Assembly (NCBI GenBank): GCA_030141605.1
Contig: JAQGDQ010000783.1
Coordinates: 1 to 64,000, forward strand
Direction of reading: 5' to 3'
DNA: 64,000 nucleotides
Source of the DNA: Tubiluchus corallicola
Lineage: Eukaryota; Animalia; Priapulida
This document shows, in pieces, positions 952 to 46,468 of the stretch (position 1 is the first letter of the stretch; the number at the start of each line of letters is the position of its first letter). Both the position numbers and the translations under genes were made by a program. Under the pieces are notes generated by a model. That model made no database searches. It saw only the letters and a list, made by a program, of their open reading frames with translations, and was not told the origin of the DNA.

Positions 952-1123
952 ATTACGCAGTGTGCCCCAGATAGAAATAGCAACTTCTATATGTGGTGAC
1001 GATCCTACATACGTGACATATGGGCTCACAATGATAAAATCTATCCTCGTTTTTACCACAACTCCAGTGAGGGTACATGTATTTATGGACACGCCGCAAA
1101 CGAAAGCCTTAGTTGAAAACAAT
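952..1123 (+). CDS. GXYLT: GXYLT-like (GT8 glucoside xylosyltransferase) internal exon A; upstream exon(s) not identified
   Basis: Acceptor ttttatgatgcag|952 (alternative cag|961), donor aat|gtgagt. Peptide IEIATSICGDD..TMIKSILVFT..VHVF resembles GXYLT 'HLAVVACGxR..TMLKSAxxFS..FHIF'. Confidence 0.8.
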
Positions 1124-1999
1124 GTGAGTAAATTAGATTATGTTTAATTTTAAAATTGCAAAATGTGGAACCTGATAAATGAAATAACGAGAAGCTGTTA
1201 TTGCAGTATGTAAAAAATGCTGAGATTTTTTATTTTTAAATTTTTGCAGTGATGTAAAATGTGGCATCTTTTGTTTTTCTTCTGGTGTATTTTACCCAGT
1301 TAAATTTAGGTGTTTGCAGATTTGTAACTAATTAACTAGCTTTGTTTGCAAAATTTTACATACTTCAAATATTAGGTTCAAATCCCACTTAAAGCTTGTC
1401 AAGCATAAAAGTATTTGCAATCATGGTCAAGTATGTTGAAAAACATTTTTAATTTTACAAACAAAATCTCTTGTATAAAGCATCTCCTGTCACAGAAACA
1501 GAATTTTACCTCAATTTTTGACATCCACTCGTCCACTCGTCCAAACGTCCACTTGTTTTTCAGATCTATACTAACAATAAACATTTTTTCTTTTCATTTT
1601 TTTCAAATTTTGCTTCTCTGTTCATAACAGGTTCAACACGAATTACAAACCTTTCAGGTACCCTCATATACAGCATGATTACAAACCGTGTAGCCATTGC
1701 CTGATTTAAACGATCATCATTCAATATTTCAACAAAGTGATTTATTGCTTTCCCTCTGCACACAGCAATCTCCTTATAGTTGCTGTGCGGATAAGGACTG
1801 TTGGGAACGGCACGAATTCAACAATCCATAGTGGAATAACAAACAATGACAAATTTCCTTTTCAACAAATAATTTAAAAAAGCAACAACTGTTTATTATA
1901 TAATCACAAATTTGACAAAAATAAACCGAAGACAGAAAACACCAGCACACTCCATCATCTCGTCTGTTAAGCTAGAACAAAAAAATTCCACGCGCCAAA

Positions 2000-2390
2000 T
2001 GCTCATAACCAACTAAGAACTTTCTTGGTGTCATGTGCCTCGCGTTCGCGACAGGGACAGCAATTACATACATCAGAAATGTAGTGTGGCCAAAAACATC
2101 TTTTCTCACTTTGTGATAAAGTTAAAAATAACAGAATTATCGAGGCAAAACTAGAAAAAAATTTACTCAGTGACTTAGGCATATTTGATTCAGAAACAGA
2201 AGTTGAACTTATGCAGACAGTTTTAGTTTGAATGTGCCAAACTGATGACTCTAATAATTCTAAATCACGCCGTACAGTTAGAGGTTTGATAGATACAGGT
2301 AGTAATGGCACATACATATTAAAGTCATTAGCAAAAGAGATAAATCTGGAATTGAAAAAATCCTAGTTATGTGAATGTTTTGGTTTTATA
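2000..2390 (+). mobile_element. BEL/Pao LTR-retrotransposon aspartic protease remnant in a GXYLT intron
   Basis: + strand reads VELMQTVLV*..RRTVRGLIDTGSNGTYILKSLAKEINL (DTGS protease motif at about 2292), with stops. Confidence 0.65.
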
Positions 2391-2399
2391 TACACCCAT

Positions 2400-2910
2400 A
2401 TACCGCCGAAATTAATATATAGACTAGCCGAGCCCCACAAAAGAAATTTGTGCATAAACTCACAACAACAACCCTACACTATACCTCCTATGTCATACCA
2501 CAACACAACACCACAACACATCACCCACCCATACCACACCACCCACGCCCTATTATCCCACCGCATTATCCTCACCACCTCATCCACACTACACCACTTC
2601 CACTTCATCACCAACATCACTCCACTAACACATACACGTACACATACACATTTCTACATTGTTTTGTTTGCTGCTTCTCAGATGATAGGATAATAGAACT
2701 TACTTAAATGTAAAATCTATAACACTATAGAACGACGGGTGAAGAAAATGCATAATTTCTCAAACTTAAGAACAATTTGGATGTTCTAAATAGCGTGCAG
2801 CGCAGGGGGGGGGGGCAGATAAAGAACTTTGAAGGACACGCCTTCTGCTTCGTCCAATATACATCTCTCCTAGGGAAACCACCAGTACTTTGTAGACCTT
2901 TTTAGACCTA
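2400..2910 (+). mobile_element. Non-autonomous repeat with CAC-rich low-complexity core (same family as 27140-27930)
   Basis: CAC/CAA-rich tract 2450-2650 followed by catttctacattgttttgtttgctgc, similar to the reverse complement near 27450 (cattctacatagtgtttgtaaactgc). Confidence 0.5.
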
Positions 2911-3552
2911 CGTACAGGATCAATGCTTTTTTTCTCTTTTGTTGCGTGCTCATGTAAACAGTTGTTATAGTATGCGTTCTAAATCAAAGACCTTTGCTAA
3001 GAATTTGTTTCCTAAATCGATATTCTTGATTTAAATCCATGCTGTTGGTAGTTCAGGTTATGGCAGCCAAGAGGACATTGGCTGAAATTTGGCTTACTGC
3101 TGTTGCAAATTTTTGTAGAGTTTGCAAAAATAGGCGCAAAACGGTGTAGAAAAGCAAATGTCAAAAAGAAATTTAGAGAAAAACCAGCTTGTAAACTTGT
3201 TCTCCTTCTGGTTCTGTTCATATTGGTCGCGCCATGGAATAGTTATAGAGGTAACGAAGGGGAGCTTGCTCGTGCTGCTACTGACTCATGCAACCCCTTT
3301 GGGCTAGGCTGTTTATAGATGCTAGTGTACCCAGGTTGTAAGTAATGGACAAAACCACTTCGATACGAAACTGAGTACATGAAAATCTAGGTCCATGTCA
3401 ATGGATTCAGAAGTGAAAATAAATTCTTGCACTGCCGTAATAAATTATGTTATTATTATTTCAACAATAAATTATTACAATGCCTCTAGCACCTTCAAAC
3501 AGAGCATCATGCATTCTTTTCTTGTTTTTTTAAGTTTTCATTCATTTTTCAG

Positions 3553-43895: not shown

Positions 43896-43990
43896 ATGTG
43901 TGTGTGTGTGTGTGTGTGTGTGTGTGTGTGTGTGTGTGTGTGTGTATGTGTTTGCATATATATGTGTGTGTGTGTGTGTGTGTGTTTGTA
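43896..43990. repeat. Compound (GT)n microsatellite (mirror about 47938-48032, differing in sequence)
   Basis: Direct reading of the sequence. Confidence 0.95.
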
Positions 43991-44485
43991 TATGTATGTA
44001 TATAAAAAATATGGTATTATATAACATGCTATAAAAAATTATATAAATTTAAAGTAATTTGTAAGAATTAAATTCTATCTACAAGAAGTACAAATACTAA
44101 TACACTGTACCACAGCACCTTTAACAATGTTCATCTCTAACCAGAAGATAGTTAAACAAAAGATTATGTTGTTGTGTTACGTTATTATATTATGAGGGGC
44201 TAATGCTCTATTTCAGAGAGAATACCATTTTGTACGGTAATAACTGTTATGAGTCTGATTAATTATATTAAACAAAAACCTTTTGAGTACTATTTTGATG
44301 GTTTTTATATACAAAGGAAATAGTCCTAATTGAGCAGTGACACATTTTACTAGATTTAATTATCTGTACATATCAAACAATATCTGTCTACTAAATTGTA
44401 CTTCTTAGTTGTTTCTACACTCTAGTAAAATTTCCTTGTTTTTCAGATGCTATGACAATAGACAGTAAATTGTCCGAAACCGGAA

Positions 44486-44980
44486 GGCAGTTAAATATCT
44501 ATTTTGAAAAGATTACAATAATAACCCCTAATCCTTTCAAACCTGCGTCTAGATGCTAAAATTATCGGCATATCTCCTGTGAAACGCAAGCGGCTTTGCA
44601 ACTATCTTGAAACTGTAAGTAGGCAATCTCATAGATGTGGATTCCTTGGCCTTGATAAACAACATTTACACTCAATAATCTGGCATGATATGGCATATAT
44701 GCCAGCAACAGCCATAATGTCGGCTGTTTTGAAAATGGCAGTCATTGTGAATTTACTAAAAATATTTTATTTTTAAAGCCGATATCTAGATGCTAAAGTG
44801 ATCAACCTATCTGCCTTGATACATGCAAAATGTATGCTGTTGTTACAATAAATCTTTGGTGAATCTATTATACGCGTGACTTAATAATATACATGTAATT
44901 TCGCTTTGTGTATTGGCCATTTTTCGGCATGGATTTCTGAAATGAAGTAACAGAAACGGATATCTTAGATCTTACTGCCC
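44486..44980. mobile_element. Probable MITE at the left edge of the spacer
   Basis: ggcagt..atatct start and agatcttactgccc end; internal direct repeat tctagatgctaaa x2; aaaatggcagtcat motif. Confidence 0.4.
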
Positions 44981-45600
44981 TGAAATAGATGTCATTAACC
45001 GCTTCACTATATTAATGTTCTGGGAACATCTTTTGATTTATATATAGCGTGGGCAAAATTATATATCCCTGGGGTTTTTGATCCAATCCTGCTAATTTCT
45101 CAAGCTGGCAACAGCATTTTTCATATTTAGCTAGCCAAATAGACAAGACTGGCTAAGTTGCCCACGTTTAGAGAAAAACGCTCTTAGAACATTATAGAAG
45201 CATCTTTATTATATTCTTCTAGTCTCACTGTTTTTGTCTTTTTTTGGATTACTTCATTCAAATTTGAGCATTTGCAAAATATGAATAACAAAAACTAACA
45301 ATCCGCAAAATGCTGAGAATCCATCAGAAAACTGTAACAATATAAAAATATATAAAATGAATTTATAAAGTTATTGTTATTAAAAGTAGTTTTCGTCAAT
45401 ATGCGAATTGGGGTTCGCTGGGTTAAATGCTGACGTGAGTGTTCTGCAGTTCGATAGTTTCGACTGTTTGCTAACTTACTGAAATGCAGAAGTTTGCTGT
45501 TAACTGAAAAGTACTTTTGAAATTGTACAATTGGCTGCATATTATACAGATTAATCTCAAATATTTTTTATTGATTTATATTTTCGATTAATGTTTAATC

Positions 45601-46468
45601 ATGGAAAGTCACTACACTATAAGAAAACGCTATAATAGACAACATGTTGTGTTCCATTGGTTCTTACTGATAAATTTTTGCATATTTGTTTACACTTACA
45701 TTATCACGAAACAAAAATTAACCGTGGTGGATTTCAAGAGAAACCTCGGTACTAAATATAAGCATTTTGTTGTAAAAACTGAGGAGCAAGAAAACTGGTT
45801 GTACTCAGAATGCAAGAGTTACTCCACATACGCTAAAAAACAATGTATCTTACATAACCATGGGAATGCCAGGAAGACTTGGAAATAACATGTTTAGCTA
45901 TGCTTCATTCATATAAATATTTTACTTTCTTGAAAGAGGAGATAAAAAACCAATTTACTTTTAACCGTAAATCCATCACAAAAGCCAGAACGTTGTTAAA
46001 TTATGAATTACAGCAGAGAGGCATTTTGGCTGCTACAGTAACATTAGTGGGAATTCACGTGCAAAGAGGCGATATCTTGTCAACAATTTTTATCTAGTCA
46101 ACAAGTCCCTTCAGCTGCATATATCAAAAGAGCTATGGACTTTATGAAAAGCAAATTTAGCTTTTGTTTTGTTTTTCGTAGTGTTTGTTGTTATTGGCAA
46201 AGATGCAACTTGGAACAAAGAAAGCATTTGTGGATTAGATGTGGTTTTCATGCCTAACAACAGTGAGCCTGCTGTAGACATGTGCATTGTCAGTCAATTA
46301 TGTACTCACATGATCATGACAGTAGGAACGTTCAGTTTCTGGTGTGGATATTTGTCAAATGGAACTGTAGTATACTTTCGTGATATGCTTCCTGATGGGT
46401 ACAGAGACAAAACCCACTGGTTCATTGCTGGTGATTATTGGCCGCCTGAATGGATAGGACTACATTGA
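45601..46468 (+). pseudogene. GT11 alpha-1,2-fucosyltransferase (FUT1/FUT2-like), single copy in the spacer, at least 3 frameshifts
   Basis: TM anchor; VGIHVQRGD (cf. HVRRGD), YIKRAMDFM, DM..CTHMIMTVGTFSFWCGYL, WPPEWIGL. Segments lie in successive different frames and the N-terminal GRLGNQ region is largely missing. Confidence 0.88.

Follow-up and report, generated by a model that had tools for sequence, protein, structure and literature searches.

A run of eight glycan-modifying genes from eight families in the priapulid Tubiluchus corallicola, a possible island of surface glycan variation

In Caenorhabditis elegans, gene clusters have been described in which glycosyltransferases of different CAZy families lie together with potential methyltransferases, nucleoside diphosphate (NDP)-sugar transporters and genes for DUF268, DUF273 and DUF1647 proteins; the clusters C13A2.1-12, K06H6.1-6 and T15D6.1-12 are named, some of their members have similar temporal expression and are possibly polycistronic, and their function is given as unproven (PMC7614267). 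The same species has 11 DUF268 and 14 DUF1647 genes (PMC3534327). In Daphnia, islands of genes for fucosyltransferases (FuT) and galactosyltransferases (GalT) within the Pasteuria Resistance Complex have undergone duplication and loss and exist as divergent haplotypes (PMC11500718). Recurrent reduction-of-function GT92 alleles are reported to confer virus resistance (PMC13105082), and the small outlier chromosome 19 of Ostreococcus tauri carries glycosyltransferases and methyltransferases in a large inverted repeat region (PMC5082852). Here we report on a stretch of 64,000 nucleotides from the priapulid Tubiluchus corallicola (assembly GCA_030141605.1, contig JAQGDQ010000783.1, positions 1 to 64,000; hereafter the window), in which positions 952-46468 hold a run of eight glycan-modifying genes, each of another family: GT8, CHST-type sulfotransferase, DUF268, a GT-A glycosyltransferase-like gene, GT77, GAL3ST-type sulfotransferase, DUF1647 and GT11 fucosyltransferase.

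An initial annotation of this locus had taken animal glycogenes to be normally dispersed or arranged in arrays of a single family, a view that does not agree with the mixed C. elegans clusters, with their DUF268 and DUF1647 genes, or with the Daphnia FuT/GalT islands (PMC7614267; PMC11500718). In the open-access literature, C. elegans and Daphnia, the latter with fewer families, were the only animals for which mixed glycogene clusters were found, and no such cluster with sulfotransferases and GT77 was found reported for another invertebrate. The Tubiluchus cluster is a variation on the already described C. elegans type; with one gene per family and with sulfotransferases, in an animal outside the nematodes, it suggests that the mixed glycogene arrangement is wider than the nematodes. 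The annotation did not mention the five broken genes, the inverted duplication of at least 16.5 kb or the C. elegans precedent. Its proposal that the locus assembles one glycan is weakened because five of the eight genes are broken here and close paralogs exist elsewhere; the self/non-self surface marker that it also considered fits the locus better than a fixed pathway.

We give about an even chance (a probability of roughly 0.5) to the locus being a birth-and-death island that varies the surface glycans of the animal. We favour this reading because all eight host genes detected are glycan enzymes, because the number of eight-gene runs expected per 25,000 genes under independent placement, which is a bound and not a permutation result, is 1e-6 at a glycogene share of 5% and 6e-3 at 15%, and because of the precedents in C. 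elegans, Daphnia and the GT92 virus-resistance alleles. Our current working hypothesis, built on family membership, is that the genes encode Golgi type II enzymes, of which GT8 would add xylose or glucose, GT11 fucose, and GT77, the GT-A protein and DUF1647 other sugars, after which the CHST and GAL3ST enzymes would add sulfate and DUF268 O-methyl groups. Linkage would pass on working and null gene sets as haplotypes, individuals would then differ in surface glycan type, with parasites or microbes as a plausible source of pressure, and duplication (the palindrome and close paralogs) and decay would turn the gene set over.

Composition and integrity of the eight-gene run

The window has a uniform GC content of 34% and carries GT-AG introns, microsatellites and retroelement debris. 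Our Pfam scan of positions 1-47600 took in all 257 stop-to-stop frames of at least 50 amino acids (aa), with the TC repeat at 10.4-11 kb omitted, and, away from known genes and repeats, 234 of the 235 frames selected at 38-49 aa; it would not pick up host exons that are shorter than 38 aa or that no Pfam model describes. Matches above the gathering cut-off were Sulfotransfer_2, DUF268, Nucleotid_trans, Gal-3-O-sulfotransferase, GT11 and one endonuclease piece of a long interspersed nuclear element (LINE). Within this scope no unrelated host gene was detected between cluster members, the remainder being retroelement pieces or weak sub-threshold matches, so that the initial statement that the only recognisable host genes are glycan enzymes has held. 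The proposal of a real, non-random grouping of Golgi-type glycan enzymes is likewise supported, eight of the eight detected host genes being of this kind. The cluster frames yielded no DUF273, nucleotide-sugar transporter, nucleotide-sugar synthesis, polymerase or export gene, and among the scanned frames there was no GT10 or GalT match, the sole fucosyltransferase being one GT11 remnant.

The genes lie 0.55-5 kb apart and occupy both strands (DUF268 and the GT-A gene on the reverse strand, the rest on the forward strand); therefore no single operon spans all eight. An N-terminal hydrophobic stretch is present in all six genes with a visible start (KD17 1.6-2.75), and protein lengths, where measurable, are about 330-400 aa. 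Seven such anchors had been annotated; six stand, and for DUF1647 no convincing first exon was found. Order and families agree with the annotation by Pfam, homologs and the Atlas, whereas two of its names are tentative: GXYLT for the GT8 gene, which goes by motifs, and At5g12260 for the GT-A gene. Homolog searches returned few matches (one for GT77, four for the GT-A gene, three for DUF1647), and no named genome matched two cluster families at once. Recent transfer from bacteria was considered and judged unlikely, given GT-AG introns in four genes, the uniform GC content and best named DUF268 matches in animals.

Five of the eight genes (CHST, GT-A, GT77, DUF1647 and GT11) are broken in this assembly, which leaves open frames for GT8, DUF268 and GAL3ST only; an eight-step pathway cannot be run from the copy as assembled. 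The CHST-type gene (PF03567; 19709-23001, forward strand; exons 19709-19880 and 22115-23001; Sulfotransfer_2 match in two pieces within 22033-22998) is interrupted in frame by a TGA (22573-22575) at the 211th of its 352 codons. The GT77 gene (PF03407, Nucleotid_trans; 33771-34760, forward strand; Pfam match 34011-34757, above cut-off) has a TGA at 34008-34010 (codon 80). It stands head-to-head with the GT-A gene (32154-33219, reverse strand), the two start codons being 551 bp apart. The latter is stopped at codon 69 by a TGA (33013-33015) and probably shifts frame at a run of seven T residues (32242-32248), where the shifted frame resembles, by eye, the C-terminus of homolog P0123; a read contig across this run agrees with the window but reaches just 24 letters beyond, too few for the bridging rule of the tool. 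No Pfam family matched the GT-A gene, its four homologs are 30-35% identical, and its language-model features lie near GT2/GNT-I clusters in the Atlas (0.95-0.97). The DUF1647 remnant (42125-42507, forward strand; Pfam 14.9 bits) aligns to one segment, approximately 57-110, of a homolog 310 aa in length, meets a TGA (42133-42135) directly past the inferred acceptor, and has no C-terminal two thirds in the window; all three library matches are DUF1647 proteins, the sole named one from Priapulus, and the Atlas gave no usable match. The GT11 pseudogene (45601-46468, forward strand; Pfam match 46148-46465) is spread across three frames, shifts between them at least three times and is missing part of its interior.

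The GT8 gene (952-15495, forward strand; exons 952-1123, 3553-3681, 6882-7068, 9436-9585, 11262-11443 and 15322-15495) joins six exons into an open frame of 330 aa spanning 14.5 kb. Single exons matched PF01501 below cut-off (22.4 and 13.9 bits), and no first exon was found in the window, the missing 5' exon or exons probably lying upstream of its start. Its introns contain a 60-bp tandem array of 28 copies (4253-5957) and a (TC)241 microsatellite (10503-10984), and the first visible intron holds a retroelement aspartyl-protease remnant (2006-2363). The GAL3ST-type gene (PF06990; 36857-39665, forward strand; exons 36857-37026 and 38633-39665; Pfam match 38472-39662) has an open frame of 400 aa with the residues KTPK at the position of the 3'-phosphoadenosine 5'-phosphosulfate (PAPS) motif, for which KTHK is usual, so that KTPK would be a changed motif; a LINE endonuclease fragment (37611-37835) lies within its intron. 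A sequence search of the PDB gave nothing significant for two GT8 exons or for GAL3ST.

Duplication, alleles and copies

The right part of the run is caught in an inverted duplication. Its left arm (27928-44432) may extend further left, as its mate runs off the window; a unique spacer of 3,062 bp (44433-47494), in which the GT11 pseudogene lies, separates it from the mirror-image right arm (47495-64000). The arms, at least 16.5 kb long, are 99.8% identical (27 substitutions and 3 gap bases) and have the GT77, GT-A and DUF1647 stops in common. Read evidence came from contigs assembled from four public runs, which drop rare variants; runs X1, X2 and X3 represent one sample (S1) and X4 a second. 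In X2, contigs identical to the window had depths of 168 and 164 in the arm against 93 and 77 in the spacer, although by the tool's own caveat contig depth is not equal to copy number; a diverged spacer haplotype was present at depth 95, differing at 33 of about 440 sites, and in X1 one diverged contig spans the arm-spacer border unbroken. We regard the duplication as probably genuine because of the roughly 2:1 arm-to-spacer depth and the border-crossing contig. A pure fold-back artefact is less likely in view of the unique 3 kb spacer, the 30 arm differences and the same depth ratio. Turnover of the gene set is suggested because, besides the inverted duplication and the arm depth, there are diverged GT77 copies (depth 78-186) and the second spacer haplotype. 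At 45893-46431, within GT11, the summed depth in X2 is 641, against 77-95 for single contigs nearby, an indication that other parts of the genome hold several close paralogs of GT11.

For GT77, position 34008 is G, giving Gly in place of the stop, in all contigs that cover the site in X1, X2, X3 and X4, and homolog P0125 also has Gly; an open GT77 allele or copy exists, and the stop itself could still be present among the rare variants that contigs drop. The stop may belong to a genuine null allele, carried by a closely related haplotype, or may have arisen as an error of the assembly. The 36 other variants listed divide evenly into 18 synonymous and 18 non-synonymous changes, with no new stop among them, where 21% would be expected to be synonymous; the resulting ratio of non-synonymous to synonymous polymorphism (pN/pS) of 0.26 (binomial p 9e-5), drawn from non-independent variants of alleles and paralogs together, indicates purifying selection on GT77 copies. 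Working GT77 alleles or copies would thus exist, because the stop is absent from the covering contigs and pN/pS is low. At 34385-34388 and 34409, all covering S1 contigs differ from both arms, despite exact matches over hundreds of bases elsewhere. At 34385-34388 P0125 agrees with the window and not with the reads, and therefore these differences are not simply errors; a different haplotype, a conversion tract and contig simplification are the candidates for the mismatch. An altered genetic code, with read-through of TGA, was set aside: the GT77 site is a sense codon in the reads, and ordinary TGA gene ends and frameshifts occur.

The right arm carries mirror copies of DUF1647 (49422-49804, reverse strand), GAL3ST (52264-55072, reverse), GT77 (57168-58157, reverse), the GT-A gene (58709-59774, forward) and DUF268 (62852-63934, forward). 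Mobile-element pieces in the left arm comprise what is left of a Gag-like retroelement, lying between the GT77 and GAL3ST genes (34923-36396, reverse strand), with a weak SCAN match and high contig depth, and a LINE reverse transcriptase fragment (40160-40876, forward). Twelve of the 30 arm differences cluster at 34950-35094, within the Gag-like remnant. An inverted pair at 26569-26742 and 36463-36613, 70% identical and of very high contig depth, is probably a short dispersed transposon. The 210 bases at 41435-41644, upstream of the DUF1647 remnant, are absent from X1, X2 and X4 contigs, an indel between haplotypes or paralogs.

DUF268 and its neighbourhoods

Among the by-products of the analysis, the most useful is a candidate glycan O-methyltransferase, DUF268. 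The gene (27994-29076, reverse strand; Pfam match 27997-29079, 102.7 bits) reads as a single open frame, 360 aa long, the N-terminus of which contains a hydrophobic stretch, and its closest named relatives are in Owenia (45%), Gordionus, Paralvinella, Lingula and Mytilus. A model built from a 109-sequence alignment reached a predicted local distance difference test (pLDDT) score of 95.2; the single-sequence fold, without alignment, was unusable (pLDDT 28.6). In Foldseek, all but one of the matches listed for the former were methyltransferases (best expect value (E) 7e-7; template modelling (TM) score 0.35-0.45 by query length), and we predict a class I S-adenosylmethionine (SAM) methyltransferase fold; a PDB sequence search with the DUF268 profile gave nothing significant (one match, E 0.73). 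The candidacy draws on a gene that is intact and anchored, on the predicted fold and on recurrence beside fucosyltransferases. DUF268 is, by the same token, a candidate for the methyltransferase modifying fucose on nematode glycans, which PMC7614267 notes as still to be identified.

The neighbourhood survey drew on 80 metagenome and 28 viral loci with DUF268. Among the metagenome loci, 37 were at least 2.9 kb long, namely 21 animal-like ones, so classed by low coding density and retroelement content (135 kb, 122 selected frames of at least 95 aa), and 16 gene-dense ones. The initial annotation had proposed a search for co-located family sets elsewhere. In one of the 21 animal-like contigs (L003) GT11, the sole non-mobile-element Pfam family among the 122 frames, lies 3.2 kb from DUF268 on the same strand, a single case that may point to recurrent linkage; the other 20 have no glycogene neighbour. 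One animal-like frame matched DUF6451 and was left unassigned. In seven of the 14 gene-dense loci scanned (L033 and L080 were omitted, and L058 and L059 look near-duplicate), a glycosyltransferase or NDP-sugar enzyme lies within 4 kb of DUF268, and two more have an FkbM methyltransferase. The gene-dense contigs L058, L059, L046, L039, L062, L064 and L066 hold mixed glycogene clusters in which DUF268 adjoins GT92, WbsX, STELLO, GT11, GT25/GT10 or NDP-sugar enzymes. Judged from the top 25 of 91 families, at least 11 of 27 viral loci have GT2, GT10, GT11, GT25 or GT92 about 2.5 kb or less from DUF268, a count that leaves out L088 (a duplicate) and one long open reading frame of L106, includes several related loci and has no background control. 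In the related viral loci L094, L097 and L099, DUF268 sits within a series of GT2, GT11, GT25 and GT92 genes. The mixed glycogene arrangement could help to assign orphan enzymes by their neighbours in the way that is usual for bacteria.

Competing explanations and described systems

Several points weigh against an island that varies surface glycans. Most of the 20 animal-like contigs in which DUF268 has no glycogene neighbour are short, and the 12 Owenia DUF268 proteins are spread over six chromosome-scale contigs; most animal DUF268 genes may thus lie outside such islands. At the single stop site, out of four, that was compared with reads, the stop was absent, so that the lesions may stem from errors of assembly or be confined to one haplotype. 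The caveats on contig depth and on the mixed GT77 variants belong here also. The haplotypes are alignable and about 5-7% apart, and divergence of about 5% may be ordinary for this species. Finally, a link to parasites or to a phenotype is hypothetical. If expanded families had come together by chance, without functional ties, in a permissive region rich in repeats, this would accord with the dispersal of the expanded Owenia family and with the local DUF268 pairs or triplets of Lingula, Mytilus and Tigriopus, but we think this very improbable: no non-glycan host gene was detected among the cluster members, DUF268 recurs near glycosyltransferases or NDP-sugar enzymes in the gene-dense and viral loci, and it is also a member of the C. 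elegans clusters (PMC7614267); no plausible random model would make the run a matter of chance.

The state of the genes bears on two further explanations. If the window held a decaying segmental duplicate without a role of its own, with working genes or a working cluster elsewhere in the genome, then five broken genes, retroelement insertions, identical stops in both arms, the changed PAPS motif of GAL3ST and the several close copies of GT77 and GT11 that contig depth points to would all be expected; yet GT8 keeps six exons in frame across 14.5 kb, DUF268 and GAL3ST are open, the contigs nearest the window GT77 lack the stop, and a mixed cluster is still required as the source, all of which leaves this explanation doubtful. 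A true biosynthetic cluster, its eight genes normally intact and co-expressed for one sulfated, methylated and fucosylated glycan and its breaks due to assembly errors or a rare null haplotype, would account for one gene per family instead of tandem arrays, for the compact spacing with the head-to-head GT-A/GT77 pair, and for the absence from the reads of the single stop checked (GT77), and would have a parallel in the C. elegans clusters, some members of which resemble each other in temporal expression (PMC7614267). However, base-calling errors do not explain the frame changes and deletion of GT11 or a DUF1647 gene without two thirds of its length, P0125 backs the window over the reads at 34385-34388, five of eight members that should be intact are broken, and the shared product and co-expression are suppositions; we consider this explanation unlikely. 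We also think it unlikely, as a more ambitious form of the favoured birth-and-death island, that islands with a DUF268 O-methyltransferase, DUF1647 and GT11 occur across animal phyla, that the present one is a blood-group-like supergene which switches whole enzyme sets and so sets a sulfated, methylated surface glycan, and that DUF268 is the Golgi O-methylating enzyme of invertebrate glycans.

The Tubiluchus locus has its nearest likeness in the C. elegans clusters, which are also made of consecutive putative Golgi single-pass enzymes of varied families with DUF268, DUF1647 and a methyltransferase (PMC7614267). In Tubiluchus the consecutive different glycosyltransferase families are GT8, GT77, GT11 and GT-A, DUF268 and the DUF1647 remnant stand for the DUF268/DUF273/DUF1647 and methyltransferase component, and the proteins, at about 330-400 aa with a single N-terminal anchor in each of the six visible starts, fall within the 300-600 aa of the C. 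elegans type. Some C. elegans clusters have, by the same description, several members per family, NDP-sugar transporters and DUF273, whereas at the Tubiluchus locus each family has a single gene, sulfotransferases of two classes occur along with GT77 and GT8, orientation is mixed and no transporter was detected, in a host that is not nematode-like.

What the locus has in common with the Daphnia islands is the clustering of fucosyl- and other glycosyltransferases, with gene duplication and loss and with haplotypes that diverge (PMC11500718). Those islands consist mostly of many alpha-1,3-FuT and GalT copies on non-homologous haplotypes with a mapped resistance phenotype; the Tubiluchus locus has eight families, alignable haplotypes and a single GT11 remnant, where an island of the Daphnia type would hold three or more copies of FuT/GalT in 50 kb. 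Glycosyltransferases and methyltransferases are likewise clustered in an inverted repeat on Ostreococcus chromosome 19, but there the host is a green alga and a whole chromosome is switched on in virus-resistant lines (PMC5082852). DUF268 relatives also sit in viral neighbourhoods with glycosyltransferases, as in giant-virus glycogene clusters. In bacteria, capsule and O-antigen loci place non-homologous sugar transferases beside tailoring methyltransferases. Unlike these bacterial and viral loci, the Tubiluchus genes have spliceosomal introns and N-terminal anchors and lie on both strands.

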